A stretch of 64,000 bases of DNA, from assembly GCA_963818095.1 (NCBI GenBank), contig CAWFRA010000024.1, positions 121,432-185,431 of the forward strand, read 5' to 3'. Numbering within the stretch: position 1 is the first letter of the stretch; every line of letters starts with the position of its first letter. Below are positions 45,484 to 64,000 of this stretch, piece by piece. Origin of the DNA: an uncultured delta proteobacterium. Its GTDB lineage: Bacteria; Desulfobacterota; Syntrophorhabdia; Syntrophorhabdales; WCHB1-27. A program made the translations under genes and the position numbers. Under the pieces are notes generated by a model. The model was not told the DNA's origin and searched no databases. It saw nothing but the letters and a program-made list of their open reading frames with translations.

Positions 45484-46152
45484 ATGACTATCGATTGTTC
45501 CTTTAACTGGCCGGACATCGGACGCGTCACCGGACCCTGCATAAGGCCCGGAGGTCCTGCGCTCACAGCGCGGGCCCTCGATGCCTGCGGCCTGCCGCCC
45601 GGCAGTCTTGCCGCAGATATCGGATGCGGGGCAGGGGGGACGCTTGAATACCTGGAGGCAGCCGGGTTGCAAGGCGTGGGGTTGGATTGTTCCGGTGCGC
45701 TCCTCGGCGAGGCAGCATCGCGGTGCGCATCCGGCCGTCTCGTCGGCGGACGCGCGGAGGCCCTGCCTTTCAGGGACGCATCTTTCGACGCCCTCTTCTG
45801 CGAGTGCGTCCTTTCGGTCGTCGGCGGGAAAGAGGTTGCCCTGGCACAATACGCCCGTGTCCTGAAAGGAGGCGGGCGCCTCGTGATAAGCGACGTCTTC
45901 GCGCCTGGCGGCGCGGGCCCCGGGCAGCCGGGCGGTGAAGGCTTTATCGGTAAAGAGTGGCTCACCGGCCTTTTGACCGGCCTCGGTTTTTCTGTCATTC
46001 TATGGGAAGAATATGAGAGGCAGCTTAAGGAGTTTGCGGCGCGCATGATCTTTGCGGGCGCCTGCCTGCCGGGCGCGTGGAAGTGCGGGCAGCGCCTGAG
46101 CTACTTCCTTCTCGCAGCAGTGAAAGGCCACGGCAGGACTGCCAGACTATGA
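45484..46152 (+). CDS. Class I SAM-dependent methyltransferase
   Basis: 222 aa with motif I DIGCGAGG and post-I/II LPFRDASFDALFCECVL...VLKGGGRLVISD. Confidence 0.8.
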   Translation: MTIDCSFNWPDIGRVTGPCIRPGGPALTARALDACGLPPGSLAADIGCGAGGTLEYLEAAGLQGVGLDCSGALLGEAASRCASGRLVGGRAEALPFRDASFDALFCECVLSVVGGKEVALAQYARVLKGGGRLVISDVFAPGGAGPGQPGGEGFIGKEWLTGLLTGLGFSVILWEEYERQLKEFAARMIFAGACLPGAWKCGQRLSYFLLAAVKGHGRTARL

Positions 46153-47568
46153 ACGATACGACGAAAAACGCCTACCCATCGGAGACGATGAGCGTCTGCC
46201 CGGTCTGCCTGAAGAGAATCAAAGCTACGCGGCTCGCCGAAGGCGGCGACGTCTTCCTCGTCAAGGAGTGCGCGGAGCACGGCGCTTATCGGACGGTCAT
46301 ATGGCGGGGGGAGCCGTCGATGGCCGAATGGCGGAGGCCCAAAGAGCCGGTGCACCCGGAGGTCTGCTACGCGGCCGTTGAGAAGGGCTGCCCCTTCGAC
46401 TGCGGCTTATGCGCGGAACACGTGCAGATGCCCTGCTCGGTCCTCATCGAGGTGACCGACCGGTGCGACCTGGCCTGCGCAGTCTGCTTTGCCGATTCGG
46501 GCCGGGGCCGGGAAGGGGACCTGCCCCTTGATAAGATCGAATGGCTTTTCGGGCGCGCCATGGCAGCGGTCGGGCCGTGCAACCTGCAATTGTCCGGAGG
46601 TGAGCCGACCCTGCGCGACGACCTGCCGGAGATCGTAGAGGCAGCGCGAAGGGCGGGCTATTCTTTCATACAGGTCAATACGAACGGCGTGCACCTGGGG
46701 CGCGATATCGAATACTGCAAGCGGCTCGCCGCGGCAGGCCTTTCGTCTGTTTTCCTCCAGTTCGACGGCGTGGACGACGGTGTCTACCGCTGCCATGCGG
46801 GGCAGGCCGCTCCTGGACGAAAAGCTCCGCGCCATCCGCAACTGCGGAGAGGCGGGCCTGGGCGTCATCCTCGTGCCTACCATCATCGCAGGCGTCAATT
46901 CAGGCTCGGTGGGCTCCATAGTCCGCCTTGCCATGCAGCTCGCCCCCATAGTGCGCGGTATCCACTTCCAGCCGGCGAGCTTCTTCGGCCGCTTCCCGAA
47001 GCAGCACGGGGACGAAGGCCGCTTTACGCTCCCGGAGCTGATGAGGGCCCTGGAACAGCAGACTGCGGGACTTATGAAGATGGCCGATTTCTCGCCTCCG
47101 GGCTGCGAGCACGCTTACTGCTCCTTCCATGCCACGTATATGATCCAGGCGGAAGGGGGTTTGAGGGCGCTTGGGGAGTCGAAAGCCGGGACTTGCTGCC
47201 CGGCCGCCGGGGCCGGCGGGGTAGGGAAGACCATCGAGACAGTATCGCGCCGCTGGACGCTGCCGTCTGCGCCGTCTCTGCCCGGCCGCCCGTCGCCTGC
47301 TTCAAAGATTCCCTGCTGTGGCACGGCAGGGGCTGACGCGGTGCGGGTCGAGGGCGCGATCGACCTCGACGACTTCCTGCGAAACATCGCGGAGCGGAGC
47401 TTCACCATATCGGCGATGGCCTTCCAGGACGCGCATAGCCTCGATCTCGAGCGCCTGCGCGGCTGCTGCATATCGGTCATCAGCCCCGACGGCAGGCTCA
47501 TCCCGTTCTGCGCTTACAACTGCACGGCCACGGACGGAAGAGGGCTCTACCGCCGGCAGGAAGCATGA
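46149..47568 (+). CDS. Radical SAM enzyme, COG1964-type (N-terminal Zn-ribbon; apparent frameshift near 46790)
   Basis: ATG 46149 overlaps the methyltransferase stop. Motifs: CPVC...C..H, CDLACAVC (CX3CX2C), GGEPTLR. After ...FDGVDDGVYR the sequence continues in ORF 46780..47568 (MRGRPLLDEKLRAIRNCGEAGLGVILVPTI...CCISVISPDGRLIPFCAYN). Confidence 0.85.
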
Positions 47569-48897
47569 TACCCGTCACACCCCTGGAAAAATGGATCGCA
47601 GAAAAGGCAGGCATCGGCCAGGCGACGACGGGCAGGGCGTTTGCCGATGCCCTGGAGGATTACCAGCTCCGAAAGGTAAACGAGACAATCGATTACGCCC
47701 GCCGCAGCGCACCTTTCTATCGCCGCAGCCTTGCCGGGCTTCCCGACGCGCCCCTTGACACTCTCCCGGTGATCGGCCGGGTGCCGTTTACTACGCCCTC
47801 GGATATCGCAGCCTCCCCGTTTTCTTTCCTAGCCGTACCGCAGGACGACATAGCCCGCATCGTCACCCTGCGCACATCGGGCAGCACGGGGGAGGCCAAG
47901 CGCATATTCTTCACGGAGGAAGACCTGGAGCTTACCGTGGACTTCTTCCATAACGGCATGGGCACGATGGTGCGGCCTGGGCAAAAGGTCGCAATCCTCC
48001 TGCCGGGCGAGAAGCCCGACAGCGTGGGCGACCTTCTCGCGCGGGGTTTGCGGAGAATGGACGCGGACGTCCTTATATACGGACCTGTGTCGGACCCGCC
48101 CGGCGCTGCGCGCGAAATAGCCTCATTCGGGGCCCGTTGCCTCGTCGGCATCCCTACGCAGGTGCTGGCCGTCGCGCTTTCGGAGCCAGGGTCGGCAATC
48201 GGCAAGGGGGCCATAGAGAGCGTGCTTCTGAGCACGGATTACGTGCCCCGTGCGATAGCCGGGACGCTGGAGAACGTCTGGGGCTGCCGGGTGTTCGGCC
48301 ACTACGGCACGACGGAGACGGGCCTCGGCGGCGGCGTCGAGTGTGCAGCGCTTGAGGGCTACCACATGAGGGAAGCCGACCTCTATTTCGAGATCGTGGA
48401 CCACGAGACGGGCCATGCGTGCCCCGACGGCGTAACGGGCGAAGTCGTTTTCACGACGCTTACGCGCAAAGGCATGCCGCTAATTCGTTACAGGACGGGA
48501 GACATGGCCCGGATGATCTCTGAGCCATGCCCTTGCGGGTGCGCCCTGCGGCGCATGGATCGCGTGAAAGGCAGGTGGGAGGGGAGGACCAGCCTGGGGC
48601 CGCAGGCCATGCTTGCGCTGCCCGACATGGACGAGGCGCTCTTCGGCCTGCCCGGCCTCCTCGATTACCGGGCCTCCGTATCGAAAGGCGACGACGCCAT
48701 TTTCCGCCTGCACCTGGACGTTTACGGTTCGGAAGGGGCGCACCTTTACGGAAGCCAGCGTGATCCGGGCGATAGGTGAGCTGGACGCCGTGCGCACGGC
48801 CGTGGCAGGCGCGTCTCTTGCGGCCCCGACCGTCCGCTTCTCAAAGGAAGGCGCGTGGGTGACCACGGGAGTAGCCAAGCGCAAAATCGTCACGTAG
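47565..48897 (+). CDS. PaaK/F390-synthetase-like adenylate-forming ligase (apparent frameshift near 48740)
   Basis: ATG 47565 overlaps the radical SAM stop. Motifs: TSGSTGEAKR, GHYGTTE, YRTGD. The tail continues in ORF 48613..48897 (…FTEASVIRAIGELDAVRTAVAGASLAAPTVRFSKEGAWVTTGVAKRKIVT*). Confidence 0.8.
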
Positions 48898-49192
48898 GTT
48901 GTGCCGCAACTTCGGGGTTATTCTTCCCCCCACTCAAATCTTCTTGACTAGAAAACCGGGCGTGTGATAGGGTAGCTCTACACTCGCTATTCAGCACAAT
49001 TGTTTATCTAACATTTTAGCCATTTGAGGAGCAGACATGAAAGGACGGATGCACATCAGCACGGCGATCGCGTTGATTGCACCATTCGCATCGCCCTTTC
49101 AAGACATGCGTTCTCGAGGCGCCATGAAGCGTAATTCGGGAGGAGTCACGGTTTTTGACGTTGTTAAATTCTGAGGAAAGGGGTGTAACGAA

Positions 49193-51273
49193 ATGAAACG
49201 AAAGGTATGGTTATTGGTTTTAGTGGTTCCGCTCTGCGTCATGATTTCCGGCCTTTGCCTGGCAGAACAGCCAAAACACCAGGGCGGGCAGCCCCAACCG
49301 GCAAAACCGGCCCCTCAATCTCATCAGGCCCAACAACCAAAACCGGCCCCTCAATCTCATCAGGCCCAACCGGCAAAACCAGCCCCTCAACCTCAGGTGA
49401 AACAGCAGCCCAAACAGACAAAACCGGCTACACCTGTCCCCCGGCCGCAGCAAAAACAGGCTGCACAACCGGCGAAGACGCCAACACCCAGCCAGCCGGC
49501 CACGCCTGTGAAGACCGCAACACCGGTTCCGACACCACCAAGGGCCGGCGGCGAAATAGCGGCCACCTCCGCCCAGACCAAGACCATCCAGAATGTAGAC
49601 GGCAAGACGGTCATACCTTACCAGGAGCCAACGAAGCCGTGGCCTAACCCTCCCACCACTACTGCTCAGCCTACTCCTGTAAAGCCGACGACGACTGTGA
49701 CACCGCCGAAGACGACGACTACAACGCAGCCTCCGATGGTCACGCCGCCGCCGAAGACAACAACGACGACTACTACAATGCCGCCTAAGACAACGACCAC
49801 GACGACTGTGACACCTCCGAAGACCACCGTTACAACTCAGCCTACGACGGTTACTCCTCCGAAGACGACTGTTACAACGCAGCCTACGACGGTTACTCCT
49901 CCGAAGACGACTGTTACAACGCAGCCTACGACGGTTACTCCTCCGAAGACGACTGTTACAACGCCGAGACGACGACTACAACGCAGCCTACAACGGTCAC
50001 GCCGCCGAAGACTACGACAACCACTGAGCCTACTACCGTCACGCCTCCAAAGACGACGACTGTGAGTACGCCTACGACGGTTACTCCTCCGAAGACGACT
50101 GTTACAACGCAGCCTACAACGGTCACGCCGCCAAAGACCACGACTGTGAGTACTCCTCCGAAGACGACGACAACCACTCAACCTACGACGGTTACTCCTC
50201 CGAAGACGACTGTTACAACGCCGCCTACGACTGTGACACCGCCGAAGACGACGACTACAACTCAGCCTCCGATGGTCACGCCGCCGCCGAAGACAACAAC
50301 GACGACTACTACAATGCCGCCTAAGACAACGACCACGACGACTGTGACACCTCCGAAGACGACGACTACAACGCAGCCTACAACGGTCACGCCGCCGAAG
50401 ACTACGACAACCACTCAGCCTACTACCGTCACGCCTCCAAAGACGACGACTGTGAGTACGCCGCCTACGACGGTTACTCCTCCGAAGACTACGACTGCTA
50501 CAACGCCTCCGAAGACGACGACAACCACTCAACCTACGACAGTCACACCTACTAAGACTACGACTGCAACGACACCTACTAAGACTACGACTGCAACGAC
50601 ACCTACTAAGACTACGACTGCAACGACACCTACTAAGACCACGACTACTTTACCCCCGAAGGACACAAAAATATCTGTCGCCAAACCTCCGAGGGACAGG
50701 GTCATAGGGAACACTCATCCGGTAGACAGAGGGGACTTGCAGCGGAGCCTGCACGCCCCTGTGCGGAAGGAAGATGCAAGAGCGGCAGCCGATCGGTACC
50801 ATCATGAAGAGAGGGTACGTTTTACGAGGCACGTTGAGCCTGTCAGATTCGGGCCGGAGCACAGGGAGATACTGCACAGCGTGCGAATTGTACCGGCGAC
50901 TTACCATTATCGGCGCACCGTCTTCTATGAAACTTATGCCTGGGCTCCGCCGAGATATGTCTACACCATGTACCCGCGCTACGGACTATACGACGCGACG
51001 TTCCTGGCTTTTATGGTAGACCACGCCGCCGAGCGGCAATATGCACTTATGTACTATAACCACAGGAATGATGAGGCATTCGTGCAGTGGCGGCAGCAAA
51101 TGGACAGCATGGCAGCGGATAACGCCGAGCTGAAAGCAAGACTGGCCACGATGGACCAGGAAGTTGTCAAGCTGCAAGGGACGCCCCCAAACCCCAACTA
51201 TGTGCCGCAGGACGTCCAGGATGTTGCGCTGGCGCCGGACGTGGTAGAAAAGATGGCGCAGCCGCAGCAATAG
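49193..51273 (+). CDS. Secreted Thr/Pro-rich tandem-repeat protein with unique C-terminal domain (frame break at about 49966)
   Basis: Signal peptide MKRKVWLLVLVVPLCVMISGLCLA, Q/P/K-rich repeats, then roughly 330 aa of (TTVTPPKTT[VT]TTQP)n. The C-terminus is a roughly 200-aa aromatic-rich non-repeat domain. It is split into ORFs 49193..50065 and 50062..51273. Confidence 0.75.
49650..50650 (+). repeat. Coding tandem-repeat array (42-bp units, a 134-bp higher-order duplication and 27-bp units)
   Basis: The 42-bp unit ACGGTTACTCCTCCGAAGACGACTGTTACAACGCAGCCTACG is iterated. 49691..49824 equals 50227..50360 with 1 mismatch (offset 536 bp). A 27-bp unit, ACACCTACTAAGACTACGACTGCAACG, occurs three times at about 50546..50640. 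Confidence 0.9.
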
Positions 51274-52154: not shown

Positions 52155-52427
52155 ATGCAGACGATACCCATGATAGAGGCGAGAAAAAAGCTGACATCGC
52201 TGCCCGAAGACCTGGAGGCCGGGGGTAGAGACCGGACGGTGGCCGTCACCCGGAGGGGAAAACCCGTGCTGGCAATAATGTCGTGGGAGTTTTTCGAGGC
52301 CCTGTACGAGACAATAGAGATCATGGGCGATGAAAAACTGATGAAATCCTTTCGGCGAGGCGTGAGGGAAGCGCAGGAGGGCAAAACGATCCCGTGGGAA
52401 AGCGCGAAAAAAGAGCTGAAGGACTGA
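52155..52427 (+). CDS. Phd/YefM-family antitoxin
   Basis: 90 aa: MQTIPMIEARKKLTSLPEDL...VAVTRRGKPVLAIMSWEFFEALYETIEIMGD is the typical Phd/YefM N-terminal fold. Confidence 0.75.
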   Translation: MQTIPMIEARKKLTSLPEDLEAGGRDRTVAVTRRGKPVLAIMSWEFFEALYETIEIMGDEKLMKSFRRGVREAQEGKTIPWESAKKELKD

Positions 52428-52753
52428 CCTGGGCCATACGCATCACGCCCACGGCCCTCGAAATGGTCAGAGGCGTAACGGACAGGCGGGTCAGGGAGCT
52501 GATTGCAAAGAAGATCGACCAGCTCGGTCGCGACCCTGACAAACAGGGCAAGGAGCTGCACGGTGAATTGCGGGGATATCGCTGCGTGCGTGCCGCCGGG
52601 CAGCGGTACAGGATAATCTACCGCGTGGAAGCGGCAGCCGTGATCGTCCTTGTCGTCGCAGTAGGGCTCCGCAAAGAAAGCGACAAGAAAGATATATATT
52701 CCCTGGCACAAAAGTTAATACGCCTGGGACTAATAGAGCCGGGGTCGCGTTAA
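52394..52753 (+). CDS. RelE/ParE-family toxin
   Basis: ...WAIRITPTALEMVRGVTDRRVRELIAKKIDQLGRDPDKQGKELHGELRGYRCVRAAGQRYRIIYRVEAAAVIVLVVAVGLRKE. It overlaps the antitoxin 3' end. The exact start is uncertain. Confidence 0.75.
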   Translation: MGKREKRAEGLTWAIRITPTALEMVRGVTDRRVRELIAKKIDQLGRDPDKQGKELHGELRGYRCVRAAGQRYRIIYRVEAAAVIVLVVAVGLRKESDKKDIYSLAQKLIRLGLIEPGSR

Positions 52754-52755
52754 CG

Positions 52756-52799
52756 CAGGTTTCTGTTATTGCTGTTTGGCGATGAACGTGGTCAGAACG
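52756..52799. repeat. Direct repeat B: the functional 3' end of gspI
   Basis: Partner of 51394..51437 (4 mismatches in 44 nt). Confidence 0.6.
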
Positions 52800-53197
52800 A
52801 CCGACCGGCGTTTCTTGTCCCAGAATATCTCCACGTCTATCTGGCGCACGTTCTGGATCGGCGTCTCGGTCACCGTCGCCTTATACGTAAAGTCCGTCGG
52901 CCCCAGCGTGGCGGCCGAGCCTACGGAGAGCACGCTGCCGGGCGCAGGCGCCTGCTGGGCATAGATCGGCCCTTCGGTCTGCCCCGGCTCCGGGTAGCCG
53001 AGCCTCTCTATCTCTTTCATCTTGTCGTCCGCGGCAAACGTCGCGTCCGTTATCTTCCTCGCGTGGTATTCCATGTCTACCGACGTTAGTACGAGACTGA
53101 TAAAGGAGACGAGTGCGAGGGAGGCGATCGCGATCGCGATCATTACCTCAAGTAAAGTTGTCCCTGCCCTTGATGGTGATTTCCTGGATATAGCCAT
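52766..53197 (-). CDS. gspI: Type II secretion minor pseudopilin GspI
   Basis: 143 aa with a prepilin leader and methylation motif (...[16 protein letters not shown]). Confidence 0.75.
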   Translation of the reverse strand: MAISRKSPSRAGTTLLEVMIAIAIASLALVSFISLVLTSVDMEYHARKITDATFAADDKMKEIERLGYPEPGQTEGPIYAQQAPAPGSVLSVGSAATLGPTDFTYKATVTETPIQNVRQIDVEIFWDKKRRSVVLTTFIAKQQ

Positions 53198-53681
53198 TAT
53201 CCCCTGTGACCTTTGCCGTCAAAGGATTTACGATTAATGAATAGGGTCCCGGGTCTCCCTCCACGTGGATGACGGCCCTGTCTACCATGCCGCTGGTATA
53301 GAAGGTCATGTAGCACTTGCCCTGCGAATACGGCTGCCCGTTGATCAGTATCGTCCTTGATCCGGTAGTCCTTCGGCAAGATCGAGGCGGCCCGTCTCCA
53401 CAAAACCCGTTCTTCAGGTCGATCCTCCCGATGCGCGCCGTGTTGTTCGTCACGTCGAACTCGATGACCCTGTCCTCGTACTTCGAGATCGCCTCTTCCC
53501 TGATGATGGCGACGTCGATCGAGAACTTCTCCAGCAGCGCCTCCTTCCCTTTTTTCGTCCCCACGTTCCAGTTGACGGAAGCGAAGGTGAGGAAGATAGA
53601 GAGCAGGAGGATGACAACGAGCAGCTCGACTAAGGTGAAACCCTTAGTCCTTCGAGAGGTCAAGGCTCGTAATGTCCGCAT
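53148..53681 (-). CDS. gspH: Type II secretion minor pseudopilin GspH
   Basis: 177 aa with a prepilin motif (...[16 protein letters not shown]). The start is uncertain (ATG 53681 or the downstream TTG). Confidence 0.7.
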
Positions 53682-54103
53682 CCTTGCCTGTTCCGCCCGG
53701 CTCGCCGTCGTGGCCGTAGCTCACGATCTCGTAGTCCTTCCCGTCCGTCGTGGGGGAGGTGTAGTAGTAAGGCTTGCCCCAGGGGTCCTTGGGGACGTCC
53801 GTGCCGTCGAGGTAGCCCCCCTCCCTCCATTTTATCGGGACGGGCGCGCGTCTCAGGCTTCTTGATGAGCGCCATGAGGCCCTGCTCCGTGGTCGGATAC
53901 GAGCCGCAGTCTATCTTGTAGAGCTTCAGGGCGCTCTCGATGGCCTTGATGTCCATCTTGGCCTTTACCCTGCGGGCCTCCTCCGGCCTTTCCATGATCC
54001 TCGGTATGAGCAGCGTTGCGAGGATGCCTATGATGACGATGACGATCATCAACTCGATGAGGGTAAAGCCTCCCCGGTTTTTCTCTATTCTTGCGCGTAA
54101 CAT
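53644..54103 (-). CDS. gspG: Type II secretion major pseudopilin GspG (apparent frameshift near 53850)
   Basis: ATG 54103 preceded by AGGAGGAACC. The N-terminus is ...[21 protein letters not shown]. After ...KKPETRA the conserved tail ([66 protein letters not shown]) is in another frame. Confidence 0.85.
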
Positions 54104-54120
54104 GGTTCCTCCTTGAAACT

Positions 54121-55338
54121 TCATTTGATCAGCACCTTGTTCATCTCGAACAGGGGCAACAGTATCGAGACGAGAATAAACGCTATAACCGCCCCCAGTA
54201 TGACTATGATGAGCGGCTCCACCATCGACGTGAAGGCGGCTATCTTCTGGTTCGCGTTGTTTTCGTAATACTCGGAGACGCTCGACAGCATCTCCTCCAG
54301 GTTGCCGCTCGACTCGCCCACCGAGACCATGTCGGCTATATACGGCGGGAAAATGGACGTCTCCCGAAGCGCAATCGAGAGGTCGGCCCCGCGCTCGACC
54401 ATCCTGGACATGTTCAATACCGCTTCCGCCACGATGGTGTTCTTCATCGTCGAGCTGACGACGACGAGCGACTGGAGCATATGGACGCCGCTCCGCAGCA
54501 GCGTGCCGAGGATCTTGGCGAACCGTGCCCACCAGGACCATCTGGTAAAGGGCGCCGAACATGGGGAACCCCAGGACAAAGTTGTCCCAGAACTGCCTGC
54601 CTTTCGGGTTCTTCTTGACCCACCGCATGACGGCGAAAAAGGCGATGGCGTGCGAGAGATTACGAAGAAAATGAGGTAGCTGTTGACGAAATCGGTTATG
54701 GCCATCAACAACTGCGTGGGCAGGGGCAACTGCTGGTTCATGCGGTCGAATATCTTCGTGACCATCGGCACCACGTAGCCGACCAGAAAGAGGAGGACGC
54801 CGGCGCCGACGACAGCACATAATGGCCGGGTAGACGAGGGCGGCCTTGATCTTCGACCTTACCATCGCCCGGCTTTCCAGCAGGTCCGCCTGGTACCTGA
54901 GGATCGAGTCCAGGGCGCCTGTCTTCTCGCCGGCAGCCACGGAGTAAATGAACAGGGTATCGAAGATCTCCGGGTAGGTCTTGAGGGCTTCCGAAAGCGA
55001 GGCGCCGCCTTTCACTTCGTCGCGCAGGTAGCCGACTATCTCTTTTTCCCTGTCGCCTTCGAGCTGGTTGGTCATGATGCTGAGCGCCTGGAAGAGGGGC
55101 ACGCCGCCCTTAAGAGGGAGGCAAGCTGGCGCGCGAGCTGCACGGGCAGCCTCTGCTTGATGCCGAAGGAAAAGAGGAAACGTTTCTTCTTCCCCTGGGC
55201 CGTAGATTCTTCTTTGAGCGAGACGAGATAGAGGCCCCTGCTCTTTATCTCGTTCTTCGCGGTAGACTCGACGTCGGCCTCCAAGCGGCCGTGCTCGAGC
55301 TTCCCGTTCTTATCGACTGCATAATACTTGTAATTCAT
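54121..55338 (-). CDS. gspF: Type II secretion inner-membrane platform protein GspF (two apparent frameshifts, near 55090 and 54812)
   Basis: Three collinear pieces: 55072..55338 ([13 protein letters not shown]...), the start of ORF 53660..55102 (PLFQALSIM...ALVYPAIM), and 54121..54774 (...[20 protein letters not shown]...FEMNKVLIK). Confidence 0.85.
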
Positions 55339-55395
55339 GCTGTACCTTATATAAGCGCCGGCTTGAACGTTTTCCGCCGCTCCTGTTTACTTCCT

Positions 55396-56926
55396 TTACT
55401 CTATCGTCACCCGGACGATCTCGGCGATTGTCGTGTCTCCTACAAGGGCCCTGGCGATGCCGTCCTGGCGCAGCGTAGTCATCCCGTTGCGGACCGCCTC
55501 CGTCTTTATCTCCTCGGATGACGCCTTTTCCTGGACCATCTGCCTGTATCTTGCTGTTCAGGGTGAGCAGCTCGAAGACGCCGATCCTGCCGAGATAGCC
55601 GGTGTTCAGGCATTCCGGGCAGCCGGTCCCTTTATAGACGACGCCGCCGGTCCCCCCATGCTCCTCCAGCATCTTGCTCTCGAATTCCGTAGGCTCGTAG
55701 ACCTCCTTGCAATGAGGGCATATCCTCCGGACGAGGCGCTGGGCGAGGATGGCGGTGATGGAAGAAGTGAGCAGGTAAGACTCGATGCCCATGTCAACGA
55801 GTCTCGTAAGGGCGCTCGGCGAGTCGTTCGTGTGGAGCGTCGAAAAGACAAGGTGGCCGGTCAGGGCCGCCTGTATGGCGATCCTCGCCGTCTCTTCGTC
55901 CCTTACCTCGCCTACCATGATAACGTCCGGGTCCTGCCGCAAAAAAGACCGGAGGGCCCTTGCAAAATCGAGCTGTATCTTCGGGTTGACCTGTATCTGG
56001 CCGATGCCCTGGAGTATATACTCCACCGGGTCTTCCACGGTCAATATATTCTTCTCCGGCGTGTTGATGTGCTGGAGCACGGCGTAAAGCGTTGTCGTCT
56101 TGCCGCTGCCTGTCGGGCCCGTGACGAGAAAGACGCCCTGCGGCCTCGTGATCGAGGGAAACGACCTTCTTCTCCAGCTCGCCCGTCATGCCCATCGAGT
56201 CGAGTCCGATGAGCGCCGCGCCCTTGTCGAGGAGGCGCATGACCACCTGCTCCCCGTAGGCGGACGGTATGATCGAGACGCGGACGTCGATGTCCTTGTC
56301 GTTGACCCGCACCTTGATCCTTCCGTCCTGCGGGAGCCTTTTTTCGGCCACGTCGAGGCCCGCCATGACCTTGATCCTCGACACGATGGCGTTCTGCGCC
56401 CGCTTCGGGGGCTTGTACGTGTCGTAAAGGAGGCCGTCTATCCTGTAGCGGACGCGCAGGTCTTTCTCGAGGGGCTGGATGTGTATATCGCTCGCCCTGT
56501 CCTTCGCCGCGATGGAGAAGAGCAGGTTAACCAGCTTGATGATGGGCGGCTCGTTCGCCGCGTCGTCGAGCAGGTCGTGGCCGCTCGGTATCTCCTGGGC
56601 GATTTCCGTCAACGCGGTCTCGCCGAGGTCTTCGACGACGCCGATCACGACCTCTCTGCCCTGCTCCTCCCTGAAGACGTTCAGGAATTCGAGGAACTGT
56701 TCCTTCGGCACGCGCTTCTTCTCGATGGCCATGTTCGAGAAGATGCCCGAGCACGTCGGAGCGCGACGCCCTGCTCGTCATCGCAGACTGCGACAACGAG
56801 GGTCGGCGGGTCGTCCTTGACGCCCAGCGGGACGACGCCGTTCTTCTGGAAGAACGAGTGGTGTATCCTGGCTATGCGGTTCGGGACCGGCGCCAGCTCT
56901 TGATCGCGTGATGCCAAAGATTCCAT
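55396..56926 (-). CDS. gspE: Type II secretion ATPase GspE (three apparent frameshifts, near 56745, 56155 and 55545)
   Basis: Pieces 56681..56926, 55794..56732 and 55310..56080, plus a tail I translated myself ([48 protein letters not shown]). Walker A is recovered as [15 protein letters not shown] after frame correction. CPHC...CPEC tetracysteine motif. Confidence 0.85.
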
Positions 56927-59002
56927 TACTTCTGTCCTTGTTGCATTTTGTCGGGCGGCACGAGCAGCTTCTGCTGCAGCGCCTTCTTCTCCTCGCTTAT
57001 CTTCGTGAGCGTATTCGAGTCGTAGATGATCCTCGGCGTGAGGAAAACGAGGAGATTCGCTTTCTGGTCGCTCTTTGCGCTGTACTGGAAGAGCTTTCCA
57101 AAAATAGGGATGGAGCTGAGCAGCGGCACGCCCTGCTCCGTGTCGGATGATGTATCCTGGATGATGCCGCTTATGACGATGGTCTGGGCGTCCCTGACGC
57201 CGACCGTCGTCTTCGTGGACCGCTTCGTCGTCGTCGGCGCCGGCTGCTGCCCCGAGCCGACCGTGGCCAGCGTGCTCGTTATCTGCGTGACCTCGGTGAA
57301 GATGTTGAGATAGACGAGGCCGTCCTTATTGATGTAAGGCTTTACTTTCAGCTTCACGCCCACGTCGCGATAGTCGAAGTTCGTGATCGGGTTGCCGGCG
57401 GAGTCGAGGCGCACGCTCGTCGTGTAAGGCACGTTGGAGCCTATGAGCACCTCCGCCTCTTCGTTGTTGAGGGTCAAAAGCTGCGGTGTGGCGAGGACGT
57501 TCGTCTTCACGTCCGCGGCGAGGGCCTGCACGAAGGACTGGACGCTCGGGAACGAGATGCCGCCGAAGTTTATCGTCTGCCCCACTACGCCTATATTGAG
57601 CCCCGACTTGAGCGCGCCCAGCGCGGTAGCCGGCTGGTTCGCGGCGATGCCCGCTGCCAGGGGAACGAGGGCGCCGCCCGTGGCTGCGCTTGTGCTTATG
57701 ATGTTCCCGCCGATGATCTTCGATCCGTTGTTTGCGCCGCCGACGACCCACTCGACGCCCAGGGTCTGCGTCTTCTGGAGGGACAGCTCGATGATCGCGG
57801 CCTCGACGAGCACCTGCGGCTTGTACGTGTCGATCTCCTCCACGATGCGCCTTATCTCCCTGATGTCTTCAGGGGGCGCGCTGATGAGCAGCGAGTTCGA
57901 CGGGGCATAGGCGGTGATGAAGACCTTCTCTCTCGGCGTCGCCGCCTTCTTCCCTTCTGCGAGAAGGGCTTGCAGCGACTTCGGCCAGGTCTGCCGCGTT
58001 CGTGTGCTGCACGTTGTAGACCTCGATCCCGGAAAGCTGGCGGGAGACGGGGATATCGACCTCTTCGATTACGGTCCTGAGCCTCTGGAGGTTCGCCGAC
58101 GTATCGATCAGGATTAGCGCGTTGGCGGAGGCAACGCTCACGAGATAGGCGTCCCTCGACATGAGCGGCCTGAGGACCCCGACCATCGCGTTGGAGTCGA
58201 GGTAATGCAGGGGGTAGACCAGCGTCGTTATCCGCTCCTCCGGGGAGAGGGTCATGAACTTCTTCCGGTCGAGGGTCTCGACTGCCATGCCTTTTGCGTC
58301 CGCGGCCCTAACTACCTTGTCGGCCTCCGGCGTCGCCATGATCGTGAAGCCGAAATAGTTGAGGACGCTTTCGAAAACCCTGAAGACCTCTTCCTTGCTG
58401 AGGGTCCTCGGCGAGAGCACCGTCACCCTGCCTTTAACGATCGCCTCGTCGTAAATAAAGTTCCTGCCCATGATGTTGCTGACGAACCTGATGAGGTCCC
58501 GCAGCTCGATATTGTCGAACTGCATCTGGACGAGGCCCCCGGACGACGGCGGGGTCACGGGACGGGCACGGACGGGCGACCTGGCTTCCGGCGCAGACTG
58601 GGCCGCAGACGGCGGCGCGGCCTTCTCGGGTGCGACAGGCGGCGCGGGCGGAGGCGCAAGAGGCGGCGGCGCCTGGGTCACGGCTCGCTGCGCAGGCGGC
58701 TGGGGCGTACCGGGTTCCTGGGCAGGGGCGGCTGCCTGGGACGATGACGGCGGCGGCGCCTGGAGCGCGGCCGGAGGCGGCGCAGGCGGGGCCTGCATTA
58801 GCTGCTGGGGCGGCGCCTGCGGCGGCTTGATATCAGACGGCTGGGAAGGGCCCGTCGGGGCCACGGCCTGGACGCGCACTACAACGCCCTCGGGCAGCGA
58901 AGCCGGACCGTTCCTGTCGCTCTGGGCCATGGCTGCCTGCGAGACGGCCAGGGCGAGGGCGAGGCAGGGCCATATCAATAGTGCGCTTTTTCTGTGCAGC
59001 AA
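56926..59002 (-). CDS. gspD: Type II secretion secretin GspD (apparent frameshift near 57977; long Pro/Ala-rich N-terminal insert)
   Basis: N-terminal ORF 57869..59002 has a signal peptide, a roughly 130-aa P/A/Q-rich tract, then N0/N1-like domains. C-terminal ORF 56926..57843 is the secretin domain. The two join as ...AEV/LQALLAEGKKAATPREKVFITAYAPSNSLLISAPPEDIREIRRIVEEIDTYKPQV. Confidence 0.85.
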
Positions 59003-59023
59003 CGATCACCCCTCCCGCTTAAC

Positions 59024-59938
59024 CTATCTTATCTCGTAGCGGAGCGTCTCGGACTTCCCGCCCCGTAAAACCTTAACTTCGAAAGCGGTCGCGTTCTTTA
59101 GCGCCTCGTAGACCTGGTTCATATCATTGGCAGAAGAGAGCTTTTTCCCGTTCACTTCCTGTAGCGTATCGTCGGGTGCTATGCCCATCTTCTGCGCTAT
59201 GCTCCCCTGGTCCACCGCGACGACCTTCACCCCATCCGCCACCGGCTTGATCGCTATCGAAGACATGAGCGTATTGCCGTCCGCTTTGAGCCGGTCCGCC
59301 AGGGCCCTGGAGATGCGCGTGACCGACCCGTCTCTCTTTATATCGTCCTTCCCGGCCTCGATCTTTGCGACAACGCGCTTCGCGGCAGGCTGCGCCGCGG
59401 GCGAGGGTATGCCCATCCCTCTGGAACGCTCGGCCGCCGACGCGAAAAGTCTCAGCACTATATCGAAGTCCCCTTTCTGGAGGCGCACGGAGTCCTTCCT
59501 GATTTCTTTGAGGGCAAGGCCGCTCTCGATTACCTCGCCCATCTCATAGGCCCATACACCTTTCGGTCCGCCCCTGTCGATGATCGCGTAATTGTCGCGA
59601 TTGCGTGCGCCAAGCATAACCCCTTTGAGCGCCATTGTCTTTACGATCCCGTTAAGTTTTTCTTCCTCTATCTCGGCGGCCGTCTTTTGCTTAGGGATCT
59701 CTGCCTCCAGCTTTGCCCGGAAGAGGTTCCTCTGAGTGATGGCGGCGTAGTCGGGCCCGCTGGGGGGCGCCTGCGTACCGGCGGTCCTGAGGGCGGCCAC
59801 GGCCGCGGCCATCTGGGGCGGCCCGTCGGGCGCCTTGAGGAACGAGGCGTTAATCATCATGAGGACGATCGCTCCTGCGATCACCCCCACGAGGGTGGAA
59901 ACGCCTAGAATAATCCCCTTCTTTCTATCGTACCGCAT
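59024..59938 (-). CDS. gspC: Type II secretion protein GspC (N-terminal TM, C-terminal PDZ)
   Basis: 304 aa. TM segment GIILGVSTLVGVIAGAIVLMMI. C-terminal PDZ-like region GVKVVAVDQGSIAQKMGIAPDDTLQEVNGKKL. Confidence 0.7.
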   Translation of the reverse strand: MRYDRKKGIILGVSTLVGVIAGAIVLMMINASFLKAPDGPPQMAAAVAALRTAGTQAPPSGPDYAAITQRNLFRAKLEAEIPKQKTAAEIEEEKLNGIVKTMALKGVMLGARNRDNYAIIDRGGPKGVWAYEMGEVIESGLALKEIRKDSVRLQKGDFDIVLRLFASAAERSRGMGIPSPAAQPAAKRVVAKIEAGKDDIKRDGSVTRISRALADRLKADGNTLMSSIAIKPVADGVKVVAVDQGSIAQKMGIAPDDTLQEVNGKKLSSANDMNQVYEALKNATAFEVKVLRGGKSETLRYEIR

Positions 59939-60103
59939 TTTGTTCCGATAGCCCTTGATTTATTACGATCTTGTTTCCGTCTTCCGGTTTTCCGGCCCCG
60001 GCGTCTATGCACCTTCCGGCCAAACCGCATGAAACAACCGTAGTTGTCGGGTAGCCCTGTCTCGCGAATTCTCTTGTAGTTCTTACCATATAGGGTACCA
60101 TTA

Positions 60104-61216
60104 TCACCTTCGCAATGTCAACGCGCATCCCGTCGGGGAGGCGCCCCCGGCCCTGTCGCAGCAGGCACTTGCGCGCCTTGCTGCCGCGCCCCCTGACCTG
60201 AGGCCGCGGCAGGCTGAACAACTGCTCGCGCCGCCCCTGCCGGTGTGCCGGGCAGGACGCTTGGCGATACGGCCCGCTGACCCGCCTGTGGCGCCGCAGC
60301 CGGCGTAGCCGTCGCACCCGGCGCCCGGCGCCGCGGCCTGCTTCATCTCTTCCGGTCCTTTTGGTGCGTCCGGGGAGGCAACGGAAACTATCGGCGCGCT
60401 CTGGCTGCCGGTTATGTTGATGGTGCCTTTGCCTTTGAGGGGGAAGGCTGCGGAGCGGCCCTCGTAAGAGAGCTTCATGTCGATAGTCTGCTCGGGCTCT
60501 CCCGATTCGACGAAGCCCGACCCCGCGAGAGATACGAAATCGCTCTTCAGGGCCAGCTTCGCGATATTGATCCGCGGCCCGTCTATCTTCCCCTCTATGG
60601 CTATCTCCTGGTAGGGGATGATGAGGCGCGGCATGTTAGTGATCTGCAGGTCCTTCACCTGCCCGCTTTTAAGGTTGAGGCGGAAGGAGCCCACCTGCTT
60701 GTCCGGCCGTCCGGGGGGCGTCTCCTTCTTGATGACGCCGTCGAGTGTGCCTGTCATGCCCTTGAACCACGGCAGTACGCCTTCCGGGCACCCGCCCAGG
60801 TTCACATGCTCGAAGGTGAGGGATACATTCGGGTTCGAGGAGGGCCCCATCATGGGAGAGCCCCGCAGGACGCATTTAAGCACGCCGCCGTAAAGCGACG
60901 CCTTCGAATGGATCGTCAGCTTCCCGGTCAAAAGCGACAGGGGGTTCCAGAAGATGTCGATGTTCGACAGCTCGAAGGGGGCAGTCTGCCCTTTTGCCCC
61001 GTCCGGCTTCAGGTAGACCTTTGATGCGCCGATGCCCATCAGCTTCGTCGTTACGCCTTCCATTGAGACCGCGATCCTTCCCGAGCCGAGCACGTTCTGC
61101 AGTGCGAGCCGCAGCGCCTTCTGGTAAGGGAAGAAGAGGTAGACGGTGAGGGCCGCGACGAAGACCGCCCATCCCAGAACACAGGCATAAAAGGTAAGGT
61201 CTTTTCGCTTAACCAT
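60104..61216 (-). CDS. gspN: Type II secretion protein GspN-like (C-terminal roughly 90 codons of uncertain frame)
   Basis: N-terminal TM plus a roughly 280-aa beta-rich domain, in the position after gspM. Beyond about 60330 all three minus frames are open and low-complexity. Confidence 0.6.
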   Translation of the reverse strand: MVKRKDLTFYACVLGWAVFVAALTVYLFFPYQKALRLALQNVLGSGRIAVSMEGVTTKLMGIGASKVYLKPDGAKGQTAPFELSNIDIFWNPLSLLTGKLTIHSKASLYGGVLKCVLRGSPMMGPSSNPNVSLTFEHVNLGGCPEGVLPWFKGMTGTLDGVIKKETPPGRPDKQVGSFRLNLKSGQVKDLQITNMPRLIIPYQEIAIEGKIDGPRINIAKLALKSDFVSLAGSGFVESGEPEQTIDMKLSYEGRSAAFPLKGKGTINITGSQSAPIVSVASPDAPKGPEEMKQAAAPGAGCDGYAGCGATGGSAGRIAKRPARHTGRGGASSCSACRGLRSGGAAARRASACCDRAGGASPTGCALTLRR

Positions 61217-61727
61217 TCGAGCGCCTCTCCATCACTGTGGCCTGCATCTCAAGCGCGCCGGTATTGTTCGCGGGCAGGGAAAGCCGCAGCTTGCCCACGT
61301 AGAAGCCGAACTCTTCGGCGTTCTTGACGAAGGAGATCACTTCTCCGAGGGGCACGTTAATCATCTTTATCTCGACGGCCGTCTGCTGCGCGCCCTTGTC
61401 GCCCTTCTCCGTCACCGGATGGAGGGTTGAGAGGGCGCCGCCGATGAATGTCTTGCCTACCAATTCCTCGACGGACGCCAGCGTCACGGGCCGCTTCTGG
61501 ACGTGACCCTGCACGGCCTTGTCGGCTGCGTGCTTCCTGGCTTCGTATATGTCCTTCAGTTGAAGCACCTCGGCGTAATCCTTCTGTCTCGACTGTATTC
61601 TCCTTTCGAGGGTGCGCGTGTCCTCGCTCGTGAAATAGGCGAAAAGGGCCGAGATGGCGAAGACGCCGATGAAGACTATGACCCAGATATTTTGCGGGAC
61701 AGCCCGCAGTTGTTCGGGGACTTTCAT
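61209..61727 (-). CDS. gspM: Type II secretion protein GspM
   Basis: 172-aa bitopic protein (TM IWVIVFIGVFAISALFAYF) lying between gspL and gspN. Confidence 0.65.
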   Translation of the reverse strand: MKVPEQLRAVPQNIWVIVFIGVFAISALFAYFTSEDTRTLERRIQSRQKDYAEVLQLKDIYEARKHAADKAVQGHVQKRPVTLASVEELVGKTFIGGALSTLHPVTEKGDKGAQQTAVEIKMINVPLGEVISFVKNAEEFGFYVGKLRLSLPANNTGALEMQATVMERRSNG

Positions 61728-63041
61728 AATACACCCCTTATCTTGAATTTCACCTGCCTGCCGGCCGCTAGGTCCAGGTTCTGCATCTCCACGTGCGAGA
61801 CCCCCTTTATCTGCTCGAGGGCCGCCTTTATCTTCTCTATCGAGGCGAAGGAGACGGTCGTGCCCGTCATGGAGAACTCCTTCTCATCGGATGTGAACTC
61901 GTTTAGCTTGACGTCTACGTCGGGCCCTATCTTTGCGCTGATCTCGTTGAGGACGGCCAGCGGGTTAGCGCCGACGGCCACGGATCCGGGCTCCTTGTCG
62001 AGGAGCCGTATCTTCTCGCGGAACATCTTGACGGGCTCTCTCACAGGGGGCGATTTCGGGAAGGAGACCCTGTAAATCCGGCCCTGCTCCGACACGAGGA
62101 ATTGATAGGCGCCCTCCTTGAAGTGATGGTCCAGCGAGAAGAGGACCGCGATAAGGATGCCGGCGCACGCCAGGGCGACGGACCCGTACAGGGCCGTCCT
62201 GGTGAAGAGGAAGAGGGCGGCGTTGCGCCTGTCCCCCGTCAGGTTTATCCTGCCCTTTGGCGTGATGGAGAGCAGGGCGGCGCCGACTGCGGGCCACAGC
62301 CACTCCTCGGCGGATTCATCCATAAGGAGGTGCTTGAGCGAAGGCGTCTCCACGCGTATATGGAACGTCTCCTCCAGGTGCTGCTTCAGGGGCTGCGCGT
62401 CCGCCGCGTCGCTCACCATGAAATACGCGCGCGGGGTGAACGTCTTGTCTTCCGCCATCTCCCTGAACGCCTCGTCGAGTGCGTCCGATTGGGAGGTGTG
62501 GAAGAACTGCCTGAGGTAGCAGAGGTGGTCGGCCTTGAAGGCCATCACGACCATTGTGCTCCCGTTCTGGTGGAGGAAGACGAAATCCCCGTGGTAGACG
62601 ACGTTGAGCCACCGGAGGGCATGCAGGACCGCTATTGCCTGCATCGTTGTGATGCGCACGTGTTTGTCCTGGGCGATGGTATCCGTGAGCGACCTTGGGG
62701 ACTGCGGCGGCCAGCACCGTGCCTTTCGCCGCCTCCACGAAATCGATTGCCAGGTCTTCGACGGAGACGGGCAGTCTTTCCTCCAGCTCTCCACCTATGA
62801 CCATCCTTATCCGCCGCCTGTCCGTAAAGGGGAAGGTGAGGGTAAAGAGGTACCCCGATCCGTTATCGACGGCGATGCCGTATCCCACGTCGGCCAGCTC
62901 TGCCTGGAGCGCGGAAAGGTCGTCTTTCTCCTGGACCTTCAAGTCGGCTATCTTCCCGTCCCGCGCCGAGAGCGTTACTCCGCACCAGCCGCCGTTTCGC
63001 TGAATTATAGCCGCGCCTCTCTTTCTCAAAATTCCCTCCAT
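61724..63041 (-). CDS. gspL: Type II secretion protein GspL (apparent frameshift near 62700)
   Basis: N-terminal cytoplasmic actin-like part in ORF 62316..63041. The rest, including the TM ALYGSVALACAGILIAVLF and a periplasmic domain, is in ORF 61724..62794. Confidence 0.7.
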
Positions 63042-64000
63042 GAAATGGTCGTCACCGTCGAAGAATCTCTTTTCAGAAGGGCCTCAACGTTCTTCGCGAC
63101 TCTGCCTATAGTATACCTGCTGCGGACGTTAAAGTAAGTGGAGTTAACCTTCGCCAGCGGCGTGATGGTCGCAGCCTGGGTCTGGCTTATCTTTACCGCA
63201 GCAGTGAGGTCGTTCATCGTCTTCAGGTCGTGCTCGTCCCTGTAACGGACGAGGTCCTGCACGTCTCCGTCGGGCAGTGGTTGGGCGAGCCCTGCGGTCC
63301 GGGTCTCGAGCACGGTCTGGAGGACCATGAGCGACGACGTATTGGCGTTCACCTTGCCGTCCGTCGGCGCTACTGTCAGGTAGCTCTTCAGGTCCTTGTC
63401 CACCAGCAGCTCTTTGTCGAACCCCTTGACGAGGGAGAGCTCTTCTATGGAGTCGAGAGGTCCGTTCTTGCAGCGATAGCCCTTCTGCCTGTAATAATCG
63501 TCCTCCGCGCCTTCGCTCCCCGTCACTTCACTGTTCGAGTCCATCCAGTCGATCAGGGCATCGACGATCTCCGGCTTGCCGCCGAGCTTGGCGATGAGGG
63601 CCCGGAGGCGCGCGTTCAGGTCCTGGTCGATCTGGTCGTTGACGACCTTGCCGGTTGTAGATTGCGCAGTCGACGACGTCGTAGAGCCCGTCGTCGCCTG
63701 GGAAGCGGTCGTCTGGGCCGAGTTGTCCTTGACGGTCCCCACCAGGTTGTTGATCGGGATCTTCGCGTCCTCGTCGGTGATCGTCACCGCGAGAATGCCG
63801 TTCCCGAGGGAAAGGCCGGGGAAGGGGGAAGCCCATTTGTCCCTCTTCGAATCAAAGCTCGCGTCGTCCTGTTTCAAAATGCCTATGGCCCCTTCGACGC
63901 CGGAGCGCGCCATGCGGATCGCCTGGACGGAGTTCCTGAAATTCTCCGCCTGGATGAGGTTGAGCTGCACCTTGGCGTTGAAGACCAGGATAAGCGGGAA
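63026..64000 (-). CDS. gspK: Type II secretion minor pseudopilin GspK (5' end beyond the right edge)
   Basis: GspK-like sequence (...DEDAKIPINNL..., ...DALIDWMDSNSEVTG.GAEDDYY...). The frame stays open to position 64000 (...FPLILVFNAKVQLNLIQ). Confidence 0.75.
   Translation of the reverse strand, partial: FPLILVFNAKVQLNLIQAENFRNSVQAIRMARSGVEGAIGILKQDDASFDSKRDKWASPFPGLSLGNGILAVTITDEDAKIPINNLVGTVKDNSAQTTASQATTGSTTSSTAQSTTGKVVNDQIDQDLNARLRALIAKLGGKPEIVDALIDWMDSNSEVTGSEGAEDDYYRQKGYRCKNGPLDSIEELSLVKGFDKELLVDKDLKSYLTVAPTDGKVNANTSSLMVLQTVLETRTAGLAQPLPDGDVQDLVRYRDEHDLKTMNDLTAAVKISQTQAATITPLAKVNSTYFNVRSRYTIGRVAKNVEALLKRDSSTVTTISWREF

Follow-up and report, generated by a model that had tools for sequence, protein, structure and literature searches.

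A predicted exported protein with a long Thr/Pro repeat spacer and a domain of an unnamed family, encoded by a frame-broken gene of a Syntrophorhabdales genome

Described systems and the window gene

Proline/threonine-rich (PT) linkers and mucin-like regions occur in secreted bacterial proteins, and envelope-spanning proteins of the TonB/TolA type combine an N-terminal hydrophobic segment, a Pro-rich spacer, and a C-terminal globular domain. Contingency loci use homopolymers or repeat units that are not divisible by three. Here, we characterized a gene that invites comparison with all of these, located at positions 49193 to 51273 of a 64,000-nucleotide (nt) stretch of DNA from an uncultured delta proteobacterium of the Syntrophorhabdales (GenBank assembly GCA_963818095.1, contig CAWFRA010000024.1); this whole stretch is hereafter called the window. 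The reading frame is broken once, inside an array of Thr/Pro-rich tandem repeats. The best explanation of the whole, which we hold to be probable, is that a single gene encodes an exported envelope protein and that the break is an insertion/deletion (indel) error of the assembly. The interest of the locus lies in an undescribed domain family and a length-polymorphic linker, not in the frame break.

Like PT-linker and mucin-like proteins, the window protein carries tandem Thr/Pro-rich units in an exported-protein architecture (334 amino acids [aa] at 49649-50649; T 54%, P 22%, V 8%, and K 8%), and these units separate an export signal from a folded domain and are expected to adopt an extended conformation. 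Unlike in those proteins, the array is strongly cationic, with one Lys per 7 to 14 aa, and the linker stands at the mature N-terminus instead of between two folded domains. No glycosyltransferase was found among the immediate window neighbors examined. The order of hydrophobic segment, Pro-rich spacer, and C-terminal globular domain is that of TonB/TolA-type proteins, whereas an AXA-like cleavage motif closes the N-terminal segment, which is probably removed, the spacer of 460 aa far exceeds what the periplasm needs, and no TonB_C or TolA domain was detected in the window protein with Pfam and NCBIfam (E < 0.1). With phase-variable contingency loci the gene shares intragenic tandem repeats and a frame break, but the break consists of a point indel within one unit rather than of a change in unit number, and all repeat periods of the gene (21, 27, 36, and 42 nt) are divisible by three, so that gain or loss of a unit does not shift the frame.

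The C-terminal domain family and its linkers

A reading of the window made earlier from its sequence alone (the sequence-only reading) had described the C-terminal domain as unique and unrecognized. The latter holds, as neither hidden Markov model scans nor a structure search gave a known family: the last 207 aa had no match in Pfam, NCBIfam, or PHROG, and the C-terminal domain and the N-terminal region returned only sub-threshold coiled-coil noise from these libraries (MbeD_MobD, FtsB, and RodZ), while a PDB sequence search with profiles A2 and A3 matched designed coiled coils only. The former does not, because the domain has hundreds of homologues. Using phmmer, we found 31 proteins homologous to the last 207 aa (E 1e-43 to 1e-114), and a profile of the 185-aa domain detected 519 cluster representatives at E ≤ 1e-3, of which 364 passed E ≤ 1e-10, all named "hypothetical protein" in their sources. 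The carriers are metagenome-assembled genomes (MAGs) of Syntrophorhabdales, Smithella/Syntrophaceae, Thermoanaerobaculia, Terriglobales, and Aminicenantes, several of which come, by their record names, from studies of bog, peat, permafrost, or soil. The family is unnamed, widespread, and apparently extracytoplasmic.

Close relatives are proteins of 270 to 350 aa composed of a signal peptide, a low-complexity linker, and the domain. In the group around P0013 (MGD0488840.1, from a Syntrophorhabdales MAG), the domain of 175 to 185 aa is 45 to 71% identical to that of the window protein, which shares the mature start LCLAEQPK and, after the 1-nt repair described below, the same succession of signal peptide, low-complexity linker, and domain. 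The most conserved residues of the domain are G90, R67, Y71, P79, D93, Y114, L139, and P164 (window-domain numbering), and the window domain carries the family residues at all conserved columns. The domain is, as judged from this conservation, the conserved and presumably functional part of the protein. An AlphaFold2 model from 13 sequences was weak (predicted local distance difference test score [pLDDT] of 68), whereas one from 101 diverse family members reached a pLDDT of 96.9 and a predicted template modeling score of 0.92; it predicts an all-alpha domain of eleven helices. The coiled-coil-like matches are attributable to a long predicted helix at domain residues 137-151. A Foldseek search of the model against PDB and BFVD gave nothing (best E, 2.5; TM score at most 0.25). 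Probably, the helical domain would act as a periplasmic or envelope-located head that binds a partner or self-associates (oligomerizes).

The predicted signal peptide, which the sequence-only reading had placed ahead of Q/P/K-rich repeats, is present in the first open reading frame (ORF). It has a KRK n-region and a hydrophobic core of ~19 to 20 aa, which is long for a signal peptide and ends in a conserved AXA-like site; the residues directly after it are EQPK, and its layout is conserved in homologues (CLAEE, CVAEE, GRADD, and AFA). We also considered a lipoprotein and rejected it, since no lipobox precedes the conserved Cys. The following Q/P/K/A linker (P 24%, Q 19%, A 13%, and K 10%) contains 2.6 copies of a 36-nt repeat with 91% identity (49302-49395, by Tandem Repeats Finder [TRF]) and is the counterpart of the Q/P linkers of relatives. 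The exported-protein architecture proposed from sequence, with its low-complexity Thr/Pro spacer, is supported, and the C-terminal domain is one that curated libraries do not recognize.

Family linkers have no conserved composition, being Q/P/K-, H/S/D-, S/R/K-, G/Q-, or A/P-rich. That of the window protein is the only Thr/Pro-dominated one in the P0013-like family and, at ~460 aa (128 aa Q/P/K-rich plus 334 aa Thr/Pro-rich), the longest seen; the linkers of 102 representatives have a median of ~90 aa and reach at most 209 aa. The sole other very long linker was seen in a Syntrophorhabdaceae relative (L022:4993-6675), in which G/Q-rich tandem repeats of ~385 aa or more precede the domain. A comparison of repeat numbers in relatives, which had been suggested as a check, revealed in-frame variation by whole units in P0013: four near-identical alleles from different assemblies (P0013, P0182, P0183, and P0185) measure 243, 257, 278, and 285 aa, their sole difference being the copy number of the 7-aa unit QQAQPQR (+1, -3, or -5). 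In-frame length polymorphism therefore appears to be a family trait, although some of these alleles may be short-read collapses. The linker ahead of the domain is, on this comparison, a part that evolves freely in length and composition, and it provides a natural example of unconstrained composition combined with in-frame repeat-number polymorphism.

Distant relatives point to the cell compartment of the domain. Among the 102 representatives, 25 extend past it into a further domain of ~270 aa, which in all seven examined is a TAXI-type solute-binding domain (PF16868, TIGR02122); NMT1_3 and TIGR02122 were absent from the window protein in Pfam and NCBIfam scans, TAXI being restricted to distant family members. 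In three loci (L026:1532-4954, L028:5867-9047, and L029:220-3382), a conserved three-gene cassette consists of a signal peptide-linker-domain-TAXI gene, then a DUF2491 gene, and then a gene for a ~255-aa coiled-coil protein, which may be PspA-like, an assignment that Pfam and NCBIfam did not confirm. Azospirillum brasilense (NZ_CP032340.1 776971-778695, L030:2764-4488) encodes a single protein with a signal peptide, a G/S/R linker, the domain core (E 5e-19), a clear transmembrane helix, RRR, and DUF2491; after this fusion come DUF350 and the same coiled-coil protein, here of 256 aa (whole segment, L030:2764-5771; NZ_CP032340.1 776971-779978). The copy of this record in the plasmid collection lists no annotation for the latter segment. 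The TAXI fusions and the transmembrane-DUF2491 fusion argue that the domain is located outside the cytoplasm, as would be expected from the signal peptides found family-wide.

Operons of the yjfJ-type PspA kind include DUF2491 and DUF350 among their components (PMC11237479). The above fusions and neighbors, with DUF350 and the coiled-coil gene alongside, relate distant members of the family to these operons. This link concerns the domain family and not the window locus: DUF2491 and the coiled-coil partner were found in L026, L028, L029, and L030 only, neither these nor DUF350 lay near close relatives of the window protein in the neighborhoods examined, and the window has no DUF2491, no coiled-coil partner (by tblastn), and no DUF350. 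It is tempting to regard the domain as a periplasmic sensing or anchoring module of phage shock protein-like (DUF2491/DUF350/coiled-coil) systems and of TAXI proteins, and the window protein as an extreme, Thr/Pro-expanded, stand-alone form whose spacer tunes its reach; we offer this as a tentative idea that is rather unlikely to hold in full. The same doubtful status applies to its companion part, in which the low-complexity region would serve as a spacer that evolves rapidly and varies in length, and the domain family would be an undescribed one with a fold absent from PDB. In any case, the sizeable unnamed family now has a boundary and a very confident all-alpha model to which nothing in PDB corresponds. 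Several lines of evidence place it outside the cytoplasm, fusions or neighborhoods connect it with TAXI and DUF2491/DUF350, and it could be studied in a cultured organism, A. brasilense.

Some further observations were made on relatives. The closest intact one, P0002 (336 aa), is frameshifted or truncated in other ENA assemblies (P0178, P0179, and P0180), P0178 being out of frame after 158 aa. Two paralogous family copies lie ~5 kb apart on one MAG contig (L006:5740-6603 and L006:10991-11893); the MAG, MFD02138.bin.2.11, also carries the closest relative, on contig L002. In five Thermoanaerobaculia loci (L009, L010, L012, L018, and L021), a conserved Ser/Thr protein kinase-TPR gene and a TPR gene are found downstream, a pair shared by loci of this group only, and in three of the five a gene for a 286-aa protein with no Pfam match follows as well.

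The Thr/Pro array and the origin of its frame break

The sequence-only reading had reported about 1 kb of 42-bp Thr/Pro units. The array is indeed present over this length, but its basic period is 21 nt (7 aa), with TTVTPPK alternating with TTVTTQP or TTTTTQP. TRF scores were 150 to 450, far above chance, and both the reported 134-bp duplicate, with its sole mismatch at 49726, and the 27-bp TPTKTTTAT unit were recovered. Directly ahead of the frame break, 3.9 near-identical 42-nt units were found (49802-49964). The 15 copies of TTVTPPK occur in six DNA versions and the 7 copies of TTTTTQP in four; because the former differ at synonymous sites only, the peptide was maintained while the DNA diverged. 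The Thr/Pro array is genuine coding sequence. Recent duplications (the 134-bp segment and three identical 42-nt units) overlie older unit divergence, and duplication of repeat units is evident: the array was built by unit duplication, and it would have been extended and resized via unequal recombination or slippage between 21/42-nt units. Its product is probably an extended, disordered or polyproline II-like, cationic, and possibly glycosylated Thr/Pro/Lys spacer at the N-terminus of the mature protein. An adaptive role, an envelope-spanning role, and O-glycosylation of this extra-long spacer may be envisaged as possibilities. The array also differs from other window genes in codon choice (ACC, 7% versus 38%; CCC, 1% versus 34%), ACT and CCT being favored over ACC and CCC, and its GC content at third codon positions (GC3) is 0.55, compared with ~0.79.

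The Thr/Pro reading frame jumps exactly at 49966/49967, where the break had been placed before. Past this point, the first ORF reads through 32 junk codons rich in Arg and Leu until it stops at 50065, and the second ORF takes over. When the 60 nt around the break were aligned to the rest of the array, two kinds of solution were obtained: a 22-nt gap against 50194-50275, and a 1-nt gap over 48 to 50 nt against the units at ~49688 and ~50337, reading GACGACTGTTACAACGCCG-AGACGACGACTACAACGCAGCCT where these units have CCGAAGACG. The latter keeps the 42-nt register and makes the broken unit a 41-nt copy, and insertion of a single A yields a 693-aa ORF that contains the unit TTVTTPKTTTTTQP. The loss of 22 nt, inferred in the sequence-only reading, is therefore only one possible alignment; because 22 is 21 + 1, it equals an in-register unit difference plus the same one-base loss, and the one-base gap suffices.

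This lesion is not special to the gene. At least eight frame breaks, including that at 49966/49967, lie in 46.8-58 kb, and all are single-base in character. TrsS (46077-47568) matches NCBIfam NF045646 at positions 2-210 and 204-441 in two frames (315 and 300 bits), with a switch of GC3 phase at ~46.8 kb. In GspE, MshEN, T2SSE positions 2-137, and T2SSE positions 163-327 are in three different frames (238 and 131 bits for the T2SSE pieces), and a frame switch was located at 56115-56152 by tblastn with Comamonas GspE. GspF occupies at least two frames, its two T2SSF domains lying in different ones and one piece running stop-free into GspG; GspG switches frame next to a run of six G (G6), and removal of one base repairs it best; and GspD is split into 57869..59002 and 56926..57843. 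The interruption of TrsS, GspD, GspE, GspF, and GspG within 11 kb points to assembly indel errors or regional decay and not to a gene-specific event. Crude GC3-phase segmentation of the first 45 kb revealed no frame break.

An assembly error, a 1-nt indel, is in our view the most likely cause of the break and a reasonably probable one. The closest genome match (70% identity) is a long-read MAG of Microflora Danica (MFD), whose MAGs were assembled with Flye from Nanopore reads only and given one Medaka round (PMC12313526), and the intact relative P0002 has a frameshifted copy (P0178) in another ENA assembly. Several points weigh against this reading. The change from AA to A is no long-homopolymer error; in assembled sequence, from which the break was judged, an error and a real mutation are inseparable; no gene neighborhood conserved between the window and the loci of relatives was found; and the biochemical roles of the domain and the Thr/Pro spacer are inferred. 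Besides, the clustering of breaks in 46.8-58 kb is unexpected for evenly spread errors (if seven events were spread evenly over 64 kb, the chance of all falling in the last 28% is ~1e-4) and would also fit local gene decay; it may reflect local coverage or strain mixture, or real decay. In the latter case, the missing base would be a real mutation and the gene a pseudogene in a decaying region that includes the type II secretion operon and TrsS, with a 290-aa secreted Thr/Pro fragment bearing a 32-aa Arg-rich tail as its product and the C-terminal domain left with no export signal. We regard this as a serious possibility, yet a clearly less likely one: every lesion seen alters the frame by a single base, the conserved stretches that were examined showed no in-frame stop, the domain scores given above are still high, GC3 stays high and in phase in the correct frames of the broken genes, and the P0002/P0178 pair shows a related gene intact in one assembly and frameshifted in another. 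Several of the breaks lie at G or C runs, as assembly errors would, though real indels favor such runs too.

The remaining explanations concern the array itself. The sequence-only reading had suggested a 22-nt slipped-strand or recombinational deletion acting as a phase-variable on/off switch, in keeping with the 22 extra nt of the unit at 50194-50275 and with the recombinational activity seen in the 134-bp duplicate. However, two paralogous units explain the break with an in-register 1-nt gap, and because the periods are all multiples of three, slippage or unequal recombination alters the length and never the frame; furthermore, the alleles of P0013 differ by whole in-frame repeats only, and identical lesions occur in unrelated neighboring genes. 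Such a switch is thus very improbable. Mis-assembly of the tandem array, by collapse or expansion, was also considered for the break, the repeat number, or both, as the break ends a run of near-identical units in which read alignment is ambiguous, and short-read assemblies of a relative differ in repeat number, some possibly by collapse. An in-register collapse, however, removes multiples of 21 nt and cannot alone shift the frame, contrary to the collapsed repeat proposed before, and many diverged units in the array anchor the assembly; we consider this explanation improbable. Programmed -1 ribosomal frameshifting has nothing in its favor except the break itself, and it is effectively refuted by the sequence, since no slippery heptamer (X XXY YYZ) is present at ACA ACG CCG AGA CGA and no homologue requires a frameshift. 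With the assembly error as the preferred reading, the apparent recombination or phase variation of the repeat array becomes a cautionary case, namely, a one-base lesion amid many.

Gene layout and genomic surroundings

The features of the repaired gene and its flanks are listed in Table 1. The stem-loop past the stop codon has a fold energy of -38.8 kcal/mol (z = -7.5) and was not called in a consensus terminator scan; it could be a terminator-like or stabilizing element.

Table 1. Coordinates of the window gene and associated features
Feature	Position in window	Strand	Remarks
Whole gene (repaired)	49193-51273	+	One A inserted at 49966/49967 gives a 693-aa ORF
First ORF	49193..50065	+	Signal-peptide-like N-terminus, Q/P/K repeats, start of Thr/Pro units
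Second ORF	50062..51273	+	Rest of repeats and non-repetitive C-terminus
Shine-Dalgarno-like GAGGAAAGGGG	49173..49183	+	9 nt upstream of ATG; direct sequence reading
Predicted Sec signal peptide MKRKVWLLVLVVPLCVMISGLCLA, cleavage after CLA	49193..49264	+	Sequence features, conserved layout
Q/P/K/A-rich low-complexity linker	49265..49648	+	Contains 36-nt repeats 49302-49395
Thr/Pro-rich tandem array, 21/42-nt units	49649..50649	+	334 aa after repair
134-bp higher-order duplicate, copy 1	49691..49824	+	1 mismatch versus copy 2
134-bp higher-order duplicate, copy 2	50227..50360	+	1 mismatch versus copy 1
Frame break, one base missing: CCGAGACG versus CCGAAGACG in paralogous units	49966..49967	+	
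27-nt units encoding TPTKTTTAT, 3.8 copies	50545..50646	+	TRF, 98% matches
Conserved 185-aa C-terminal domain (all-alpha in the model) and stop codon	50716..51273	+	Homologues, AlphaFold2 model
Perfect 17-bp stem-loop	51291..51329	+	18 nt past stop codon, no U tract

The type II secretion operon downstream (52766-63970, minus strand) comprises GspK, unassigned ORFs, GspC, GspD, GspE, GspF, GspG, and pseudopilins, and ORF 53660..55102 within it is chimeric, combining a piece of GspF with GspG. The idea that the window protein is a substrate of this neighboring system was rejected, as the association is not conserved. On the other side, within 46077-48779, the split TrsS, a radical SAM (seleno)protein of NF045646, is followed by an intact AMP-dependent CoA ligase of the DVU_1553 family (NF045666, 459 bits). 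A Phd/YefM antitoxin and a ParE-family toxin form a pair at 52155-52753, with a cupin-like ORF on one side and the end of the secretion operon on the other.

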